Below, in pieces: positions 578-9,295 of a stretch of 9,295 nt of DNA (positions within the stretch are counted from its first letter, which is position 1; the number at the start of each line of letters is the position of its first letter). The translations under genes and the position numbers were made by a program. Location of the stretch: the NCBI GenBank assembly GCA_048939465.1, contig JBHLPL010000077.1:1-9295 (forward strand), given 5' to 3'. This stretch comes from Promethearchaeota archaeon. Its GTDB lineage: Archaea > Asgardarchaeota > Odinarchaeia > Odinarchaeales > JBHLKK01. The notes under the pieces were generated by a model. That model searched no databases and was not told the DNA's origin. It saw only the letters and a list, made by a program, of their open reading frames with translations.

Positions 578-1993
578 ATGGGCATGAAAAGACTCTTTGG
601 AACGTCAGGTGTCCGGGGTGTATACAACACCGAATTTACGCCCCTAATGGCTCTGAAGATGGGACTATCCTTGGGGACATATCTTAGTGGAAAGTCTGTT
701 GTTGTGGGGAGAGACGTAAGAACAACTGCTCGTTCAATTGAATGCGCAGTCACGTCGGGCTTGGTAAACACAGGGTGCAGAGTCCATAAAACGGGGGTTG
801 TTACTACGCCGACTCTTGCATACATGACGAAGTATCTTGATGCATCAGCAGGTATCATGATAACTGCCTCTCACAACCCGCCACCTGCAATTGGCTTGAA
901 ACTATGGAACCCTGATGGAATGGGGTTCACGTTAGAACAAGAGAAGGAAATCGAGAGGATATACTTCAAAGAAGCTTTTTCACCAAAACCATGGCATCTC
1001 TTAGGGAAAACTAAGAACACGGAGACTGCAAACTCTGTTCATATAGAGATGATAAAGAAGAACGTCAATCTCAAGACTATTAGAAAAAGAGGGTTCAGAC
1101 TGGTTGTTGACCCAGGATGTGGAGCAGCTTACAAGATCGCACCCAGATTATCGAGAGAACTAGACTGCAGAGTGACTAGTCTAAATGCCCAGGGAGATGG
1201 CTTTTTTCCAGGGAGAGATCCTGTACCGTCTGAGGAGAATCTAAAGGATCTATCTGCTCTGGTTAGTGCTACTTCTGCTGATCTGGGTGTAGCTTTTGAT
1301 GGAGATGCAGACCGCGTTGTCTTCACAGATGAGAAAGGAAAGGTCATAGAGGGCGATCGACTTCTAGCTGCCTTGGCCAAACGAGAGATCGAGAACGGCG
1401 GCAATGGAAAAACCGTCACTACTATAGAGGGCAGCATGGTAATTGAGGAAGTCATAAACCAATCTGGTGGCGAAGTCTTCCGAACACCTGTAGGTGATAT
1501 TCAAGTAGCAGTTAAGATCAAACAATGCGGAGGTATGCTTGGTGGGGAAGCTTGTGGAACATACATATGGCCTAAGGCTCACTACGCGCCTGATTCCTTG
1601 CTTACAGTGGGAAAGCTGCTTGAATTCCTTGCCGATGATGGGATCGAGATGAGTGAGTTCATTTCATCAATACCCAGATACCCCATTCTGCGCGAGAGGA
1701 TTGAATGTCCTGACAGGTGTAAACAAGTTTTGATGGATAGTTTAGAAAAAAAGCCAAGCATGTTGTTGGAGGAGATGTTTCAAGTACAGAAGGTCGACGG
1801 TTTGCGTTTGCTATCAAACGAAGGCTGGATTCTGATACGCCCTTCTGGAACCGAGCCATTCATACGCCTGACTGTTGAAGCCAAGAGCACTGATGTTGCC
1901 AAAAACTATCTAAAGGAATTGAGCGAGAGACTATCTGGGCTGATTGACAGGCTCAGAAGCAGTAGGAAGCGAGAATTACGTACTGGGAAATAG
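578..1993 (+). CDS. glmM: Phosphoglucosamine mutase / alpha-D-phosphohexomutase (archaeal GlmM/PMM type)
   Basis: Family motifs RLFGTSGVRG, GRDVR, phosphoserine loop ITASHNP, metal loop FDGDADR, sugar loop GGEACG, and C-terminal IRPSGTEPFIR. Substrate (GlcN-P versus Man/Glc-P) cannot be fixed from motifs alone. Confidence 0.9.
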   Translation: MGMKRLFGTSGVRGVYNTEFTPLMALKMGLSLGTYLSGKSVVVGRDVRTTARSIECAVTSGLVNTGCRVHKTGVVTTPTLAYMTKYLDASAGIMITASHNPPPAIGLKLWNPDGMGFTLEQEKEIERIYFKEAFSPKPWHLLGKTKNTETANSVHIEMIKKNVNLKTIRKRGFRLVVDPGCGAAYKIAPRLSRELDCRVTSLNAQGDGFFPGRDPVPSEENLKDLSALVSATSADLGVAFDGDADRVVFTDEKGKVIEGDRLLAALAKREIENGGNGKTVTTIEGSMVIEEVINQSGGEVFRTPVGDIQVAVKIKQCGGMLGGEACGTYIWPKAHYAPDSLLTVGKLLEFLADDGIEMSEFISSIPRYPILRERIECPDRCKQVLMDSLEKKPSMLLEEMFQVQKVDGLRLLSNEGWILIRPSGTEPFIRLTVEAKSTDVAKNYLKELSERLSGLIDRLRSSRKRELRTGK

Positions 1994-2368
1994 GTTAGCT
2001 ACCATTTTTGCATAATTCCTGAATACACTTACAGTATTGCCAAGGCTAGTCATTGACCTTCCGGCACCTATCAGAACTAGCTCTCCTGCTCCAGATAACA
2101 CTATATAGCCCTTTGCTCCCGTAACGATAACTTCCCATAAATCGCCAAATCCCATTCTGGATGAAGCGGTCTCCCCCACATGAAGCATGGCAGCCGAGAT
2201 CGCTGACATCAAATCTGGTTCAACGTCATAGCCAACGGTTTTAAATGCAAGTCGTTGCCCCTCACGCGTAACACAAGCCAAAGCCTCAAGCTCTGTTTTC
2301 ATTGCAATCTCACTAAGGTAGTTGGCCAGTTTCTTTGCTTTTTCTGGAGTGATTTTAACGGACGACAC
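1976..2368 (-). CDS. Roadblock/LC7 (MglB-like) domain protein, 130 aa
   Basis: Typical roadblock pattern: helix, ALACVTREGQRLAF strands, DLMSAISAAMLHVGETASSRMGFGDL helix, EVIVTGAKGYIVL-GAGELVL strands, C-terminal helix. GTG start 7 nt after AGGAGGA. The 3' end overlaps glmM convergently by 18 bp. Confidence 0.85.
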   Translation of the reverse strand: MSSVKITPEKAKKLANYLSEIAMKTELEALACVTREGQRLAFKTVGYDVEPDLMSAISAAMLHVGETASSRMGFGDLWEVIVTGAKGYIVLSGAGELVLIGAGRSMTSLGNTVSVFRNYAKMVANLFPST

Positions 2369-2375
2369 CCATAAA

Positions 2376-2382
2376 TCCTCCT
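2376..2382 (-). promoter_or_regulatory. Shine-Dalgarno site for the roadblock gene
   Basis: AGGAGGA on the minus strand, 7 nt from GTG 2368. The nearer ATG at 2372 is only 3 nt away and opens a 5-codon frame. Confidence 0.7.
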
Positions 2383-2419
2383 AACGGAATTATACGCCAG
2401 TTGCGACAGGTTCCGGTCT

Positions 2420-3316
2420 TTACTTTTTCTTTCCCTTTTTCTCTTTTGTTTCCTTTTTCTGCTTTTTCTCTTTACTAGGAACATCTATCTTAAAGAAATC
2501 GACTAAATCACTCAGGTGCAGCTTCATTTCTTCTCGCAGTGAACGAGGGGTAGCACCCTCGGCAGGAACTTCGATAGTTTTCCCTGTTTTAAGGAACTCC
2601 ACAGCTAAAACCCGACCCTTGTCCACAATTACTCTAGGTGTGTATCCCTCTGCAAAGAATATTCCCTCGGGCAGCTTAGCAGCTTTTTCAAGTTTTGTTT
2701 CGACTTTTTTTTCCCCCAGAAAAATAGTTCTGTATTCTGTGATTGCATACACTTCATTTCCAACAATGACCAATTCTCTTTCGTATCCGCGAGGAATCTC
2801 GATTTTCTCAAGTTTTGAGATCACCTCTGCTTCAAGTGGTGTAACGATTGATATGTCAGGGGAGGGCGTAGGAGATGGAGCGGGTGGAGTAATCTGGGTT
2901 CTTGGTGCTTCTGGTTTTCTAACGGGCTCAGGAGCAGGAGCAGCCGGCGTTGGAACAGATTTGGGAATTGCGACGGGTGCAACGGGAGGCTTGGGTTCAG
3001 CCGGAAGCGGAGGACGCTTGGCTTTCTTCGGTTTGACTCCTATTGAATTGAGAAACTCTTCTGATTCGTCACCTTCATCGATGCTCAAAGTCTTATAGGT
3101 CAGTCCTCTCTCTTGTCTTATTTGGTTGGCTACTCGGGCACTAATAAATTTCTGTCTGACAGGAGCGCCACTGCCTTTCCATATCCATACTTTCTTTGTG
3201 TCATCATCTATCAGAATAAGAACCTTATCGCTGGCCAAATGACTCTTAATGGGCTTATCCCCTTTTAGCTCGTCTAGGTCGCCAGAATCTGATACACCAT
3301 AGACTATCATAGCCAT
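2420..3316 (-). CDS. Single-domain gelsolin-like protein with Pro-rich linker, additional C-terminal domain and polybasic tail (1DGelX-like architecture), 298 aa
   Basis: The N-terminal ~93 aa match the gelsolin repeat pattern (LASDKVLILIDD..KKVWIWKGSGA..RQKFISARVANQI....IDEGDESEEFL). Start moved from the track's TTG 3385 to ATG 3316 because AGGAGA lies 8 nt upstream and a TATA box falls inside the longer ORF. Confidence 0.8.
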   Translation of the reverse strand: MAMIVYGVSDSGDLDELKGDKPIKSHLASDKVLILIDDDTKKVWIWKGSGAPVRQKFISARVANQIRQERGLTYKTLSIDEGDESEEFLNSIGVKPKKAKRPPLPAEPKPPVAPVAIPKSVPTPAAPAPEPVRKPEAPRTQITPPAPSPTPSPDISIVTPLEAEVISKLEKIEIPRGYERELVIVGNEVYAITEYRTIFLGEKKVETKLEKAAKLPEGIFFAEGYTPRVIVDKGRVLAVEFLKTGKTIEVPAEGATPRSLREEMKLHLSDLVDFFKIDVPSKEKKQKKETKEKKGKKK

Positions 3317-3324
3317 TACATCTC

Positions 3325-3330
3325 TCTCCT
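3325..3330 (-). promoter_or_regulatory. Shine-Dalgarno site for the gelsolin-like gene
   Basis: AGGAGA, 8 nt upstream of ATG 3316. Confidence 0.6.
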
Positions 3331-3363
3331 GCGTTTTGGTTTCAATCTTTATTATTATTTTCC

Positions 3364-3380
3364 TATAATTTAACTTTTCC
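3364..3380 (-). promoter_or_regulatory. BRE/TATA promoter for the gelsolin-like and roadblock genes
   Basis: Minus strand GGAAAAG-TTAAATTATA. The predicted start site near 3340 lies just upstream of the RBS. Confidence 0.55.
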
Positions 3381-3454
3381 TTCAACCATTATTAACTGCA
3401 ACAGTCTTGAAACAAAATCCTCCAACCATCGCAAGGGTTCACTTCAGGGGAAAT

Positions 3455-4975
3455 CTATCGTAAGCAATCCTCTATAGCCTTGGGCAGCATTTCTATAATA
3501 TCAGTGGCAACAACGTGATATCCCAGCTTATCCACAACCAAGTCGCCAGATCGACCATTAATGAATGCGGCCGAAACTGCGGCTCTAAATGGATCAGAAC
3601 CTTGCGAAAGAAATGTCGCCACAATGCCACTGAGGACATCACCTGTGCCTCCCACTGTCATGCCAGGATTTCCGGTAACGTTAATCTTGTAAGATTCTCC
3701 ATTTGAAATAATGTCTTCATGTCCTTTGAGAAGTAAAACTACGCCGAGTTCTCTTGCTGTCTTCATTACTTTGTTGATTCTACTCTGAAGATTGTCAGAT
3801 GAAGGCAGGACTTCGCCGGTTAATTTATTATATTCGCCGGCGTGCGGCGTTAAGACAGCAGGTACCCCTTTCAAGATTGTTTTCTCCTTCGCCATTGCCT
3901 TCAGGGCATCTGCATCAATTAGTGCTGGTTTGCCCAACTTCTTGATAGTATCCAAGATTTTAAGTACAGCATCCATTGTTTGTGACTCAACACCTAAACC
4001 AGGGCCGATGGCTACACAGGATGCCCAATCGATTAATCCTTTCAACAATGGGAGCGCATTCTCAGTAAGAACATCCCCAGGTAAGCTGCGGACAATTAGG
4101 TTCGGAGAGAAGCTCCTTACTGCATCGACGACGCTGTTCGGAGTGGCGACAATTACCAGGTCCGCCCCAGTTCTGAGGGCAGCGGAAGCTACAAATGTAG
4201 GGGCTCCGTGATAGTAGCTGCCTCCCCCAATGACCAGGATCTTCCCAAACTCGCCTTTTCTTGCATACGGGCTGCGTTTTCTTACAGTCGCTCCCACATC
4301 TCCAGGTCCTGCAACGATTTCTGCTTCTGGTGGAATCCCGATTCCAGCCACCGTGAGTTCGCCAACATATTGACCTGCTTTCAATAGTCCAGATTTGACC
4401 TTGTGGAATGTTATCGTCATATCTGCTTTAACTGCTCGATCAGATACCTCTCCATTAGATGCGTCTACTCCTGTCGGCGCATCAACAGCTACCTTAAACC
4501 CAGTGGAAGAATTGATCATGTCAACGGCCGTGGCAATGGGATCCTTAAGCTTCCCTGAAAATCCAGTTCCGAGAATAGCATCTACGACTATCTCTGCGTT
4601 CGCCACCAGTCTCTCGACTTCGGGGCCTTCTGAAGAATCTCCCAGAATCACCTTATTTACGGTTAGCTGCATTTTATCTAGGATTGCCCAGTTCCTCCGG
4701 GCTTCAGGAGTGCGAATCCTGTCAGGATGGCCCACCAGAACAAGCCATACTGTGGCTCCTAGCCCGGCCAGATGCCTAGCTGCAACGAATCCATCTCCGC
4801 CATTGTTTCCTGGGCCAGTGAAGATTACGACCTTTTTACCTTTGACCTTCCTGGAGCGATTAATGGCATCCGCCACACCTCGTCCCGCATTCTCCATTAG
4901 GACACGAGGTGAGACTCCCAAATAGCTGGAGTTCTTGTCAATAATTCTCATCTCTTCAACAGTAATAGTATCCAA
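3455..4975 (-). CDS. nnr: Bifunctional NAD(P)H-hydrate epimerase / ADP-dependent NAD(P)H-hydrate dehydratase
   Basis: YjeF_N motifs GPGNNGGDG, DAILGTG and AVDAPTG. Ribokinase-like C-domain motifs IGPGLG, IDADAL, VLTPHAGE, LLKG and GNPGMTVGGTGDVLSG. TTG start preceded by GGGGGG. Confidence 0.95.
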   Translation of the reverse strand: MDTITVEEMRIIDKNSSYLGVSPRVLMENAGRGVADAINRSRKVKGKKVVIFTGPGNNGGDGFVAARHLAGLGATVWLVLVGHPDRIRTPEARRNWAILDKMQLTVNKVILGDSSEGPEVERLVANAEIVVDAILGTGFSGKLKDPIATAVDMINSSTGFKVAVDAPTGVDASNGEVSDRAVKADMTITFHKVKSGLLKAGQYVGELTVAGIGIPPEAEIVAGPGDVGATVRKRSPYARKGEFGKILVIGGGSYYHGAPTFVASAALRTGADLVIVATPNSVVDAVRSFSPNLIVRSLPGDVLTENALPLLKGLIDWASCVAIGPGLGVESQTMDAVLKILDTIKKLGKPALIDADALKAMAKEKTILKGVPAVLTPHAGEYNKLTGEVLPSSDNLQSRINKVMKTARELGVVLLLKGHEDIISNGESYKINVTGNPGMTVGGTGDVLSGIVATFLSQGSDPFRAAVSAAFINGRSGDLVVDKLGYHVVATDIIEMLPKAIEDCLR

Positions 4976-5040: not shown

Positions 5041-6876
5041 TCAGTCCTTAAGACCTAGCAGAGTGACTACGGCCGCAGCAAAGACCTTAGCCCCCTCAAT
5101 CATATCGTCGATTTCTATGTACTCATTAGGGCTATTGCATTTCTCTTCATCCCCCGGGCCGAATATACATACAGGTGTCTTACTCTGAACCAGAATCTTT
5201 GCCAGGTTATTTTCTTTGGTTTCAGAGAAGGCGGGTTCCTGATTAGCTGTATTGAACAAACCGTCTCGAACTGCCATCACTATGGGAGCATCAACAGAAG
5301 AAGCAATTTTAGGAGGTTCAGGCAACTGCTCAATGGTTACATCAACATCAGAATCCGATATTTTGATATTATCAACGAGTTTTCGAACTTCATTAAGTAT
5401 CTTTTCATTGTACTCCTTGTACAGATGACGGATGTCCAATGTCGCTTCCGCCCATTCGGGAATACCACCCACACCAGGCATTCCTCGAATCTCCCTTATG
5501 TTAATTGAGCATTTGGCAAGCAGCGGATATTCGTTTCCATCGAAATCGCTAAATCTGATCAGCACTTTGACGAGTTTCTCGGCGGCGTTGATGTCCCTTA
5601 GCGAAGGTTCAAACACCCGTCCTCTGCTTGTAAGTCTGAAGGCTAGTGTCTCCAGTTCAATAGTCTTTATAGTTTTGCAACCAGTAGGGCTGGCTACGAT
5701 GGCATGACTTGGGATAAGTCCTACCTCTTCTATCAGATGCTTCAATCCGATTCTTCCGTCGCCCAATCCATCAGCTACTGCAGCCACCATTATTTGACCT
5801 TTTAATTGTACGTTAAGAACATGTATTGCTCTAAGGGCCATTAAAGCCGAGACCAGAGGTCCTTTACTGCAACAAGCCCCTAGCCCGTATATCCTGTGTT
5901 CTTTTTCAACGGCGTCCAGCGGCGGATGCTTCCAACCCTGAACTTGGGGTGAAACATCATGATGACAGACAAGGAGAACGGATGGTTCCCCTTCTTCGCC
6001 TGACCAACTAACAACATTCGTTCTATCTTTTTCACTTTCATAGACTCTGAACCTGATATTGTCTTTCAGTAGCTCTTCCAAGATTATTCTAGCTGCTCTA
6101 AATTCATGTCCCGGAGGGTTAGTTGTATCAGCACTTATGAGGCGTTTCAATAAATCTACGAAGTCATCTCTATGGGATTCGATCCATTCGTAGACATCCA
6201 TAACAATGTCTGGGAGTATTACAGGCTCGCTGGGGAGCAAATCAGCAGTGGTTGCAGGGATTTCAGATTCTGTTTCGACTTCAGGAACTAGGGCTGCTGA
6301 AGTATCCACAGAGATCTCTGGAGGTATTCGGGCGGGAACCTCAGTTTCGATTTCCTCAGGCTTCTCACCGGCCGTAACAGTCGCTACTATCTTGAATACG
6401 TCCGCCACTTTTTCTCCGGTTTTGGCACTCGTCTCCACATAATCCATCCCGAGCTCGTCGGCTAATTCTTTTCCTTCCTCATAGCTTACTTCCCTTGCCA
6501 AATCAGTCTTATTGCCGACCAGTATTCCAGGAACAGCCCCGACCACCGAGTCAATATCCTTAAACCAATGCCTGACATTCTCAAATGATGGTCGGTTAGT
6601 GACATCGAAGACATAGATGACCCCCCTGGCTCCAGGATAGAATATTCTACGAAGATCTTTGAAGGTATCCTGACCGCCTAAATCCCAGATTTGCAGTTTG
6701 GCTGAAATACCATTAAGATCTACATTCTTAATGGCGAAGTCAGCTCCGATGGTCTTCTTATAGGTCTCTTTGAATGAATCTTCAGTGAATCGTAGAATAA
6801 GACTGGTCTTGCCGACCATGCCGTCTCCAACAGTAATTATCTTGAACATATATTTTGTGGCTCTAGGCAAATCCAT
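5041..6876 (-). CDS. Fusion of a Rab-like small GTPase (aa ~8-170), an acidic Pro-rich linker (aa 171-225) and an M20/ArgE-DapE-like domain with a degenerate active site (aa 226-611)
   Basis: G1 GDGMVGKT, G2 KTIGADF, G3 WDLGGQ, G4 NKTD, G5 ETSAK. M20 landmarks LLKRLISADTTNPPG.E, RTNVV, HHDVSP..GWKHPP, IYGLGA..SKG, INA, IPEWAEATLDIR and FGPG....SPNEYI. One uninterrupted 611-codon ORF. Confidence 0.9.
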   Translation of the reverse strand: MDLPRATKYMFKIITVGDGMVGKTSLILRFTEDSFKETYKKTIGADFAIKNVDLNGISAKLQIWDLGGQDTFKDLRRIFYPGARGVIYVFDVTNRPSFENVRHWFKDIDSVVGAVPGILVGNKTDLAREVSYEEGKELADELGMDYVETSAKTGEKVADVFKIVATVTAGEKPEEIETEVPARIPPEISVDTSAALVPEVETESEIPATTADLLPSEPVILPDIVMDVYEWIESHRDDFVDLLKRLISADTTNPPGHEFRAARIILEELLKDNIRFRVYESEKDRTNVVSWSGEEGEPSVLLVCHHDVSPQVQGWKHPPLDAVEKEHRIYGLGACCSKGPLVSALMALRAIHVLNVQLKGQIMVAAVADGLGDGRIGLKHLIEEVGLIPSHAIVASPTGCKTIKTIELETLAFRLTSRGRVFEPSLRDINAAEKLVKVLIRFSDFDGNEYPLLAKCSINIREIRGMPGVGGIPEWAEATLDIRHLYKEYNEKILNEVRKLVDNIKISDSDVDVTIEQLPEPPKIASSVDAPIVMAVRDGLFNTANQEPAFSETKENNLAKILVQSKTPVCIFGPGDEEKCNSPNEYIEIDDMIEGAKVFAAAVVTLLGLKD

Positions 6877-6980: not shown

Positions 6981-7139
6981 TAATAAAATTTCCATAATGA
7001 TGCGGATGATAGATTGCTATCTTGATTTCTTTAGAACCTCTTTTCACTATTCTGTGATTATCATAAAAGCAGGGCTTCCTCTTTGCGAAAGAATTAAATG
7101 TTTAGGAACGAAACTTTAGATTGATCAAAGCTTTCGGTG

Positions 7140-7982
7140 ATGAAGTTGATACGAGAGGTTCTGGTATTGGACAAAAGTGGGGAAAAACTCTTTCACCGAG
7201 CATATACAAAGTCTAAGGAGATTTCAGTTGATGCTATACTGCCCACAATTCTAGGCGCGTCTGAGAGAATGGAAATGGGGAATATTGAGCATACAAACAT
7301 TGTTCGTTTTCGGTTCTCCTACCTCAAGTCGCACGGCAAGATATTCGCAGTGCTTAGTGATAGGACTAACTCGGAGCGGGAGATTCAAGAGGCTTTACTG
7401 CAGATAACGACCAACTTCCTTAAGAGGTTTGGACAAGAGTCTCAGACAAATAGTAGCCCCAAGCTGGCCGACGGTTTCAACAAAGAAGTAATAGAAATCG
7501 TGAGTAAGCTCCCTGTGAAACTATCCTTAGTCGGATTCGGTGGTGTTGGAAAGACTACTATACTTCGCCTTCTGCGAAAAGAGGAAATTCCGATGAAGTA
7601 TATTCCGACAATCTTCGCCGACAGAGAACCACTCACAGTTACGGTAGGAATTTACTATGTTATGGTATTTGATTTCGCAGGTCAGGAGCAATTTATGGCT
7701 GCTTGGGATATACTTGTCAAGGGAACGGAGGTCATTGCTATAATCATTGACTCTACGGTGGACAACATGAAGCTAACAAAAGAAAAGATCTTTCCTTTGG
7801 TCAGAAGTAAAGCACCTTACTCAAAGATTATAGCAATTGCAAACAAGCAGGATCGTGGAAATGCAATTCCTCCCGAGGAAATTGAAGAGATACTTGGTGT
7901 TAAGACCTATGGCCTAGTGGCTATAGAGAAATCACAGCGATCCAACCTTTTGGAACTCTTGGAGAAGATAATCTTAGAATAG
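7140..7982 (+). CDS. Longin-domain + small GTPase fusion (Arf-like features), ~280 aa
   Basis: The N-terminal ~125 aa follow a longin pattern (IREVLVLDKSGEKLFHRAY ... FAVLSDRTNSEREIQEALLQITTNFLKRF). C-terminal G1 GFGGVGKTT, G2 YIPTI, G3 FDFAGQ, G4 ANKQD, variant G5 LVAI. Start uncertain: GTG 7137, ATG 7140, or TTG 7146 after a GGTGA RBS. Confidence 0.85.
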   Translation: MKLIREVLVLDKSGEKLFHRAYTKSKEISVDAILPTILGASERMEMGNIEHTNIVRFRFSYLKSHGKIFAVLSDRTNSEREIQEALLQITTNFLKRFGQESQTNSSPKLADGFNKEVIEIVSKLPVKLSLVGFGGVGKTTILRLLRKEEIPMKYIPTIFADREPLTVTVGIYYVMVFDFAGQEQFMAAWDILVKGTEVIAIIIDSTVDNMKLTKEKIFPLVRSKAPYSKIIAIANKQDRGNAIPPEEIEEILGVKTYGLVAIEKSQRSNLLELLEKIILE

Positions 7983-8114: not shown

Positions 8115-8945
8115 ATGGCAAAACTCAAAGTGGGATTGATCGGGTGTGGGGCAATCGGAAACCTTATCTCTAAAGCAATTGAGGAAGGCAAAGCCGGAGA
8201 TACTGAACTGGTAATGGTATATGATGTGATAAAAGAAAAGGCTGAAGAGTTTGTACAGCTGATGCCGGAGAGACCAAGAGTAGCCGATACTGCGGAGGAA
8301 ATCATTGAAAGTGATCTAATTAACTTGGTTGTAGAGGCAGCTTCTCAGGGGGCTGTTAAGGAATATGCAGTTAAGATTCTAAATTCAGGAAAGGATCTTT
8401 TAATTTTGAGCATCGGAGCTCTTGTAGATAAACAACTACTGAAAGCGATTGAAGAAACTGCGGAGAGAAACGATAAGATAGTCTATCTCCCGTCAGGGGC
8501 AGTGGTTGGCCTTGATGGTGTGAAATCCTCTTCAGTGGCTAAGCTTTCTGAAGTATTATTGACCACACGAAAGAATCCTGAAATACTGAAAGGAGCACCC
8601 TACATCATTCAGCACAAGATTGACTTGGATTCGGTGAAGGAGCCAACTGTAGTCTATGCCGGGTATGCTGAGGAGGCAGCAAGAATGTTTCCCAAGAATA
8701 TTAATGTTGCCGCAGTTCTAAGCTTGGCAGGAATTGGGGCAGAAAGAACCAAAGTCCGAATAATAGCGGATCCGACAGTGCACAAGAATGTCCATGAAAT
8801 CGTTGTAAAAGGGGACTTCGGTACCTTAAAGACTCACGTGGAGAATGTACCCTCATCCCACAACCCTAAGACAAGTTATCTTGCAGCGCTCTCAGTTATC
8901 AGAACGTTAAGAAAAATCGGAGAACACATACAAATAGGAACTTGA
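8115..8945 (+). CDS. nadX: L-aspartate dehydrogenase (de novo NAD synthesis)
   Basis: Rossmann motif KVGLIGCGAIG, plus VVEAASQ.AV, LSIGAL, YLPSGAVVGLDG, TTRKNP, FPKNINVAA and NPKTSYLAALS. Immediately upstream of nadA. Confidence 0.95.
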   Translation: MAKLKVGLIGCGAIGNLISKAIEEGKAGDTELVMVYDVIKEKAEEFVQLMPERPRVADTAEEIIESDLINLVVEAASQGAVKEYAVKILNSGKDLLILSIGALVDKQLLKAIEETAERNDKIVYLPSGAVVGLDGVKSSSVAKLSEVLLTTRKNPEILKGAPYIIQHKIDLDSVKEPTVVYAGYAEEAARMFPKNINVAAVLSLAGIGAERTKVRIIADPTVHKNVHEIVVKGDFGTLKTHVENVPSSHNPKTSYLAALSVIRTLRKIGEHIQIGT

Positions 8946-8960
8946 TAATTGGCGATCGAC

Positions 8961-9295
8961 ATGCGTTCGCTAAATAGACTGCAAAAGAAAGTATTGCAAC
9001 TGAAAGAAAGAGAAAACGCCGTGATGTTGGTCCATAACTATCAGGTATCAGAAATACAGGAAATAGCAGATTTCATCGGAGATTCTCTTCAGCTTTCCAT
9101 TAAGGCCGCTGAAGTTGAGAACATGGATTATATCGTTTTTTGCGGAGTAGATTTCATGGCTGAAACTGCTTCGATCCTTAACCCGAACAAGAGAGTAATA
9201 CTACCAGCGATAGAGGCCAGATGCCCCATGGCTGCTATGCTTACGGCGGAAAAGGTGATTGAAGCAAGAGGGCAACATCCGGATGCCCTAGTTGT
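8961..9295 (+). CDS. nadA: Quinolinate synthase A, 5' part (runs off the right edge)
   Basis: Manual translation: MRSLNRLQKKVLQLKERENAVMLVHNYQVSEIQEIADFIGDSLQLS...IVFCGVDFMAETASILNPNKRVILP..EARCPMA. Shows HNYQ, GDSL, VFCGVxFMAE and the first Fe-S Cys (CPMA). Alternative in-frame TTG at 8949. Confidence 0.95.
   Translation, partial: MRSLNRLQKKVLQLKERENAVMLVHNYQVSEIQEIADFIGDSLQLSIKAAEVENMDYIVFCGVDFMAETASILNPNKRVILPAIEARCPMAAMLTAEKVIEARGQHPDALV

Follow-up and report, generated by a model that had tools for sequence, protein, structure and literature searches.

We examined a 9,295-nucleotide window (positions 1 to 9,295 of contig JBHLPL010000077.1, assembly GCA_048939465.1) from a Promethearchaeota archaeon placed in the order Odinarchaeales. 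On its reverse strand, positions 5041 to 6876 encode a 611-residue protein in which a Rab-like GTPase is joined through a linker to a domain of the M20 peptidase family. We propose that this domain is a pseudoenzyme, a true two-domain M20 fold of the ArgE/DapE type that is probably kept as a scaffold or binding body of the GTPase; from the sequence comparisons and structure predictions described below, we assign this reading a probability of about 0.72. The C-terminal 390 residues are predicted to be incapable of the di-metal amidohydrolase reaction of the family. As judged from sequence, the domain combines the three properties that define a pseudoenzyme, namely homology to an enzyme family, loss of essential residues and purifying selection.

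The open reading frame (ORF) is uninterrupted over 611 codons and ends with a TGA stop codon at 5041-5043, and its extent is supported by the ORF list, the translation, Pfam matches and full-length orthologues. The Rab/Ras-like GTPase domain occupies residues 8-170 (6367-6855), as delimited by PDB matches, motif codons, the ratio of non-synonymous to synonymous substitution rates (dN/dS) and a Pfam Ras match (residues 12-165, E = 8.7e-52, 175 bits, above the gathering threshold). An acidic linker of approximately 50 residues rich in Glu, Pro, Ser and Thr follows (residues 171-222; 6211-6366). It evolves fast and varies in length, and the orthologue alignment concentrates its indels and substitutions there. 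The remainder is the M20 half, to which the range given by the first-pass annotation corresponds (5041-6201, about residues 226-611). Alignments and a structural model delimit the first part of the catalytic domain (residues 223-400; 5677-6210), which keeps an NPPG motif, H305 and D307, and carries the changes R332L, D336C, E370G, E371L and E396S. The lid or dimerisation domain (residues 401-529 approximately; 5290-5676), defined by Pfam, column statistics, the model and dN/dS, has E423 for the lid His and an altered GG..N motif (G466M, N470G). According to the alignments, the second part of the catalytic domain (residues 530-611; 5044-5289) keeps FGPG and E585 and has N581 for the C-terminal His.

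Both Pfam models of the family match above their cut-offs: Peptidase_M20 (PF01546) at residues 302-603 (E = 1.4e-19, 71.3 bits, cut-off 24.6) and M20_dimer (PF07687) at residues 429-505 (E = 1.4e-6, 28.6 bits, cut-off 21). The claim that the fold-defining motifs and full length persist without frameshift or stop is borne out by these matches and the open frame. A chimera of assembly is ruled out by the identical architecture found in three genomes of the genus and in a Logan contig.

The M20 half retains the motif order of the active enzymes and has lost most of their catalytic residues. In a phmmer search against all PDB chains, it matched Escherichia coli ArgE (7rsf, E = 4e-12) and Enterococcus faecium DapE (7uoi, E = 4.5e-12). 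Both alignments place residues of the study protein opposite the HxD, GxxD, DEE, GEPT and H-x-x-[DN]-E motifs; with ArgE, the pairs (study protein/ArgE) are chhd/ghtd, lgaccskg/lgtadmkg, adglgd/adee-t, ivaspt/iigept and kcnspney/qahqpdey. Searched exhaustively with HMMER, a set of 1.84 billion representatives yielded 7,035 relatives, and the best 149 representatives of these were aligned with the study clade using MAFFT (152 sequences).

Two positions are kept in this alignment. H305 (codon CAT, 5962-5964), the metal 1 ligand of HxD and the sole retained metal ligand, is His in 147 of the 149 relatives, and D307 is Asp in 148. The bridging Asp of GxxD, present in 147 relatives, is C336 (TGC, 5869-5871). 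The general-base Glu (143 of 149) and the adjacent metal-ligand Glu (139 of 149) are G370 and L371 (GGA TTG, 5764-5769), and the Glu or Asp ligand of GEPT (141 of 149) is S396 (AGC, 5689-5691). Likewise, the lid His, which complements the active site with an oxyanion or substrate contact (147 of 149), is E423 (GAA, 5608-5610), and the C-terminal His ligand (137 of 149) is N581 (AAT, 5134-5136). All seven canonical residues are present in 123 of the 149 relatives, and the study clade is without six of them.

These assignments agree with the first-pass annotation, which had aligned the motifs by eye. It had read GHxD as CHHD (C304 H305 H306 D307) with the His ligand retained, and its residue numbers are exact, with columns 305 and 307 confirmed. 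Its further readings, namely the bridging Asp as C336 (in C335 C336), DEE as D369 G370 L371 with general-base and metal-ligand Glu lost, the GEPT ligand as S396, and the C-terminal His as N581 (C580 N581, with E585), were each recovered by phmmer and MAFFT alike. The 152-sequence alignment also reproduces the reduction of the lid GxxxHxS motif (G419/E423/S425). Its summary that four of five metal ligands and the catalytic base are gone holds, H305 being the only ligand left in the alignments. Misalignment is ruled out by the agreement of the phmmer pairwise alignments, the MAFFT alignment of 152 sequences and a MAFFT L-INS-i alignment of 24.

The loss falls on the catalytic residues in particular. 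Where a column shows a conservation of 85% or more across the relatives, the study protein keeps one of six catalytic positions versus 21 of 28 others (Fisher p = 0.014). The kept non-catalytic columns include NPPG, R285, W315, P319, G331, G333, K338, G377, G419, N430, A431, D481, R483, G575 and E585; further conserved positions that are altered (R332L, G466M and N470G) belong to the lid or to the surroundings of the substrate pocket. The pattern appears to be a selective loss of catalysis, far more than chance or misalignment would be expected to produce.

Consistent with this pattern, the M20 half scores 156.8 bits against TIGR01910, the NCBIfam model for ArgE/DapE, which is below its cut-off of 217.6. 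The model is passed by an active fusion protein described below (P0028, 295.5 bits) and by a stand-alone M20 protein of the same genome (L006, 280.4 bits); this genome retains a separate canonical M20 enzyme. The study protein belongs to M20 at the level of the fold and fails both the TIGR01910 cut-off and six of the seven catalytic-residue tests, and it should therefore not be filed as a hydrolase.

Pseudo-M20 domains are not unique to this protein. A few stand-alone M20 representatives (P0119, P0169 and P0086) also lack three to five of the seven catalytic residues, so that catalytic erosion is seen repeatedly in this M20 subfamily, beyond the GTPase fusions.

Despite these losses, the fold is predicted with confidence. 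An AlphaFold2 model of the M20 half, built with a 70-sequence alignment, has a mean predicted local distance difference test (pLDDT) value of 93.8 and a predicted template modelling (pTM) score of 0.90, with no segment below 50. The lid domain is folded in the model (block pLDDT 78-96) and has a dN/dS of 0.05-0.09. Foldseek comparison with the PDB recovered DapE, ArgE, carnosinase CN2, 5-nitroanthranilate aminohydrolase and LysK (E = 1e-28 to 1e-25; template modelling (TM) score 0.65-0.77), led by DapE 7uoi (E = 1.3e-28, TM 0.74-0.77) and ArgE 7rsf (E = 2e-27). The superposition on DapE/ArgE that had been put forward as a check therefore gives a match, at E = 1e-28 to 1e-27.

Selection on the domain was assessed with full-length orthologues that are 83-89% identical to the study protein and lie on independent contigs. 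These are P0003 (a Logan contig, 89% identity), P0004 (metagenome-assembled genome (MAG) GCA_048886745.1, 83% identity) and a third close orthologue from another genome of the same genus; all of them share the six catalytic substitutions. By the Nei-Gojobori method, dN/dS (omega) of the M20 half within this clade is 0.06-0.07 (dS 0.57-1.4), with 105-162 synonymous versus 35-71 non-synonymous differences. For comparison, the value is 0.24-0.69 in the linker, 0.03-0.07 for the M20 half of related fusions with an intact site in Freyarchaeia, and 0.07-0.16 for those of Jordarchaeia. On these estimates, the dead M20 domain appears to be constrained like a working enzyme, and neutral drift is excluded. 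The first-pass annotation had argued for selection rather than decay, to be checked by conservation and dN/dS. That part stands, since the substitutions are shared by the orthologues and the low omega equals that of the GTPase half and of the active orthologues, above which the linker rises clearly; the non-catalytic role that it attached to this selection is something we infer.

The GTPase half is apparently a functional Rab-like switch, to judge from its motifs and constraint. The G1 to G5 motifs are intact: G1 is GDGMVGKT, G2 contains T42, G3 is DLGGQ with Q69 as the catalytic Gln, G4 is NKTD and G5 is SAK. Of the proteins with a solved structure, Rab1A is the closest (7eq2, E = 1.8e-43), and the best archaeal match is a Thorarchaeota Rab (7ezb, E = 7e-39); dN/dS of this half within the study clade is 0.04-0.09. 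The prenylation Cys motif of eukaryotic Rab proteins is absent, as the G domain is followed by the linker and the M20 domain, and the protein terminates in LLGLKD. Complex prediction between the GTPase domain and the M20 half gave a score of 0.05 (mark 0.32), a value that does not bear on docking in either direction.

Relatives with the same architecture and an intact active site exist in other Asgard lineages. The second-best match of the exhaustive search, P0028 (a 576-residue metagenome protein, 33% identity), is itself a Ras-M20 fusion. It is colinear with the study protein through both halves (36% identity, E = 5e-127), and its site is complete (H-D-D-E-E-E-H plus the lid His). We searched 400 genomes of the phylum for the fusion. 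Among them, the dead form occurred only in the genus of the study genome (three genomes), and fusions of 587-611 residues occur in two further families, one in Freyarchaeia (f16; G117 = CP147778.1) and one in Jordarchaeia (f15). Active sites were tabulated for 11 genome loci (five f15, six f16) together with P0028. All six Freyarchaeia fusions have a canonical site. In contrast, all five Jordarchaeia fusions (L011, L015, L023, L025 and L026) have Gly at the position of S396 (IVGGxTR). In L025 the general base, too, is replaced by Gly, and in L015 Tyr stands in place of the lid His. Jordarchaeia, with an M20 dN/dS above that of Freyarchaeia, may represent an intermediate stage of catalytic erosion.

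The Freyarchaeia and Jordarchaeia proteins (P0028; loci L057, L059 = CP147778.1, L054 and L060) resemble the study protein in their order of Rab-like GTPase, linker and ArgE/DapE-type M20 domain with lid. They differ in that their catalytic set is full (Freyarchaeia) or chiefly minus the Glu at the S396 position (Jordarchaeia), whereas the study protein has lost nearly all of it. They also pass the TIGR01910 cut-off, which the study protein fails, and their linker is much shorter.

A further stage of erosion is found in Odinarchaeum. The 557-residue 'GTP-binding protein' of Candidatus Odinarchaeum yellowstonii (P0177) and three relatives form a sister family in the same GTDB order, with a Rab-like N-terminal half 49-54% identical to that of the study protein. 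A Pfam scan of the C-terminal half (approximately 350 residues) found no domain. However, hhalign matched this half to the M20 alignment over 336 columns (95.8% probability, E = 6.7e-9). A loop of approximately 21 residues bearing the bridging Asp is deleted, and the His of HxD is absent. The C-terminal half has a dN/dS of 0.11-0.17, compared with 0.06-0.07 in the study clade, and BLASTP with the M20 half of the study protein gives a significant match for the final 138 residues alone (E = 5e-6). The AlphaFold2 model of this half, from a four-sequence alignment, reached a pLDDT of 55.6 and was too poor for a fold search. Because this model is unusable, M20 ancestry rests on hhalign and on synteny: both loci carry the fusion, Nnr, a 321- or 286-residue protein and a Roadblock gene, then PGM on the other strand and LeuRS beyond. 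The Odinarchaeum protein is thus like the study protein a syntenic fusion with a Rab-like N-terminal half and, in all likelihood, a non-catalytic M20 relic under purifying selection; it is far more eroded, to the point that its M20 domain is no longer visible to Pfam. Stops and frameshifts are absent from the four study-form and four Odinarchaeum copies. Throughout the order, a Rab-like GTPase thus appears to carry a non-catalytic M20 relic, whose erosion has reached two different stages.

The phylogenies bear on the order of events. In the M20 tree, the Freyarchaeia and Jordarchaeia fusions form a starred clade and the study clade is a separate starred group. The dead clade has a stem of 1.35 substitutions per site, compared with 0.33-0.51 in its neighbours, and evolves slowly thereafter. 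A tree of the M20 half with all fusions constrained together had a log-likelihood (lnL) 8.6 better than the free search (approximately unbiased test, p-AU = 0.68). In the GTPase tree, the test did not reject the grouping of all fusions into one clade (p-AU = 0.19), and the nearest rows to the study protein are those of the Odinarchaeum sister family. Because Freyarchaeia have a colinear fusion whose site is intact and Jordarchaeia have one that lacks a single ligand, the fusion most probably predates the loss of catalysis, which would have taken place inside a pre-existing Rab-M20 protein. As a separate observation, intact-site stand-alone M20 proteins of 400-408 residues (L016 of genome G291, and P0029) group with the Freyarchaeia/Jordarchaeia fusion clade (support 82). 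These may be either the unfused ancestor type or proteins that secondarily lost the GTPase.

If the domain is indeed a pseudoenzyme, its history may be pictured as follows. The M20 body would already have worked with the Rab-like switch while still an enzyme, and in the order that includes Odinarchaeum it would have been retained solely for its non-catalytic job. Dimerisation through the lid is known in DapE and ArgE, and the M20 body may likewise be a rigid unit, probably dimeric through its lid, that acts as a scaffold or binds a partner. Its interactions would be gated by the nucleotide state of the tethered GTPase, or else it would keep the GTPase within a complex. Both this role and its coupling to nucleotide state are inferred. 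Several observations weigh against this reading. Nothing in the long, flexible linker points to a fixed interface between the GTPase and M20 domains. Only four close sequences (83-92% identical) represent the dead form, so that residue conservation within the clade says little beyond the overall dN/dS. Values of dS above 1 approach saturation, which leaves the closest pair (dS 0.57, omega 0.069) as the one fully dependable estimate. Both trees accommodate a single origin of all fusions but do not prove it. Finally, H305, D307 and C336, with the nearby C304, C335, H306 and C580, could in principle form a mononuclear Cys/His site.

This last point is the basis of one alternative, in which C336 and H305 (possibly with C304, C335, H306 and C580) make up a new mononuclear metal centre or redox-active thiol centre, and the domain is a different catalyst or a redox sensor. 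It is specifically Cys that replaces the bridging Asp, beside a second Cys, and Cys also flanks H305 and N581; the Cys/His set is invariant in the four known sequences, and thioredoxin-reductase-like genes flank the active fusion in Freyarchaeia and Jordarchaeia. However, Cys at positions 304, 335 and 580 is common in active M20 proteins (18, 19 and 10 of 149), which makes the cluster partly background, and four sequences this similar render the invariance uninformative. Metal site 2 would have no ligand besides C336, as its other positions are L371 and N581, and the general base is Gly. Given also that the Odinarchaeum orthologue has none of these Cys and His residues, we consider the prospect of such a centre slim. 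The notion that the M20 half is a functionless remnant heading for loss is hardly credible. The long stem leading to the dead clade and the further erosion in Odinarchaeum are what such decay might leave behind, but an omega equal to that of active orthologues contradicts it, as do eight intact copies and a confidently predicted fold. For relaxed sequence within the same gene, the linker (omega 0.24-0.69) provides the comparison.

Another alternative is a role in ligand sensing. The dead cleft would bind a metabolite, either an N-acyl amino acid or a peptide-like one, that it does not cleave, and would relay its occupancy to the Rab-like switch, as an amino-acid-sensing GTPase module. The cleft-forming two-domain fold and its hinge are retained with confidence in the model, and second-shell or pocket residues (K338, R483, E585 and N430) are kept. 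The ancestral fusion, an active deacylase joined to a GTPase, suggests a metabolic input, and genes for NAD repair and NAD synthesis adjoin. In contrast, the substrate contacts of the closed state have been replaced (H423E in the lid, G466M, N470G and R332L), so that the ancestral ligand is unlikely to fit, and the Odinarchaeum orthologue is conserved despite its deleted active-site loop, which suggests that the pocket is not the selected feature. Because of these replacements and the erosion of the Odinarchaeum pocket, we favour scaffolding or protein binding over sensing of the ancestral substrate, and regard the sensor as unlikely.

The surroundings of the gene are partly conserved. Downstream on the same strand lie Nnr (YjeF_N plus Carb_kinase; 3455-4975), the 321-residue protein, which has no Pfam match (2420-3385), and a Roadblock/LC7 protein (1976-2368) that is a candidate regulator of the Rab-like domain. 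The order of fusion, Nnr, 321-residue protein and Roadblock gene (1976-4975, reverse strand) recurs in Odinarchaeum (L066, 9651-12556) and in L053, with 46-69% identity per gene between the genus and Odinarchaeum. The MAG of P0004 (locus L053) is labelled 'Candidatus Hodarchaeota archaeon' at NCBI, whereas the genome collection places the study genus in the order of Odinarchaeum; the shared synteny fits the latter. A divergently transcribed gene on the forward strand (7137-7982) encodes a 281-residue protein whose N-terminus weakly resembles longin (Fuz_longin_1, E = 7e-4, below cut-off) and which contains an Arf/Rag-like GTPase domain. It adjoins the fusion across the genus (L001, L002 and L053) and was not found beside the Odinarchaeum orthologue. 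Beyond it lies a cluster for de novo NAD synthesis (aspartate dehydrogenase, NadA and NadC; 8115-9293, forward strand; L001 1740-4379), and Nnr, for NAD(P)HX repair, stands on the opposite side of the fusion from this cluster.

Freyarchaeia and Jordarchaeia loci share a nearby LeuRS gene with the study lineage, but their neighbours are NUDIX and thioredoxin-reductase-like genes instead of the Nnr, Roadblock and 321-residue protein genes of the study locus. Directly upstream of the active fusion, the loci L054, L057, L059, L060 and L003 share a conserved NUDIX hydrolase gene and two genes for thioredoxin-reductase-like proteins (Pyr_redox_2). A NikR-like gene lies downstream of the Freyarchaeia fusion; in L003 it matches RHH_1 and NikR_C by Pfam, and the 143-residue counterpart in L057 and L059 was matched between those two only. 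An Nnr gene is also found approximately 5.5 kb from a Jordarchaeial fusion (L060, 14652-16223).

Work on Asgard small GTPases treats them as forerunners of the eukaryotic switches for membrane traffic and signalling, but very little has been learned of their targets. Here, a Rab-like switch and a partner are parts of one polypeptide. The intact, partly eroded and fully eroded forms in related lineages constitute a natural experiment on the conversion of an enzyme into a non-catalytic module, and the active Freyarchaeia, dead study-genus and minimal Odinarchaeum proteins offer constructs for biochemistry with which to ask what an archaeal Rab-like switch does. More speculatively, the Rab-M20 family could be an Asgard-specific signalling device in which the deacylase body is a built-in effector or dimerisation platform of the switch, possibly working with the conserved Roadblock and 321-residue neighbours. 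The series from Freyarchaeia through Jordarchaeia and the study genus to Odinarchaeum would then record, stage by stage, how an enzyme gave rise to an effector domain of a GTPase; we put this forward only tentatively. If true, it would offer a prokaryotic precedent for eukaryotic GTPase regulators and effectors that arose from metabolic enzymes. As for annotation, the name 'M20/M25/M40 family metallo-hydrolase', given by NCBI to the 83%-identical P0004, over-calls an enzyme, and 'GTP-binding protein' in Odinarchaeum overlooks the relic M20 domain.

Among known systems, the ArgE, DapE and LysK deacylases (PDB 7rsf, 7uoi, 5vo3 and 5xoy) have the two-domain fold and motif order of the study M20 half. 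The study protein differs from them in the replacement of the general base, the lid His and all but one of the five metal ligands, and in its fusion to a GTPase. Pseudo-metallopeptidases that serve as binding modules include nicastrin and the transferrin receptor, with an M28 fold, and Spt16 and Ebp1, with an M24 fold. The principle is common to the study protein, in that a metallopeptidase fold free of its ligands is kept for binding or as a scaffold; however, these proteins are eukaryotic, belong to other peptidase families, and none is known to be fused to a small GTPase. Our literature search found no paper on the Rab-M20 fusion, its erosion series or an M20 pseudoenzyme, and family M20 is not discussed in a review of this principle (PMC11266112). 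Multidomain GTPases of Asgard archaea with longin and Roadblock partners have been described (PMC10933270; preprint by Liu et al.). In these longin or Roadblock GTPase fusions and in Roc-COR (ROCO) proteins, as here, a G domain of the Ras superfamily is covalently attached to a larger body with a dimerising or regulatory function. The study protein is distinguished by a partner that is derived from an enzyme, the M20 domain, and by a G domain that is Rab1-like rather than Roc or Rag-like.

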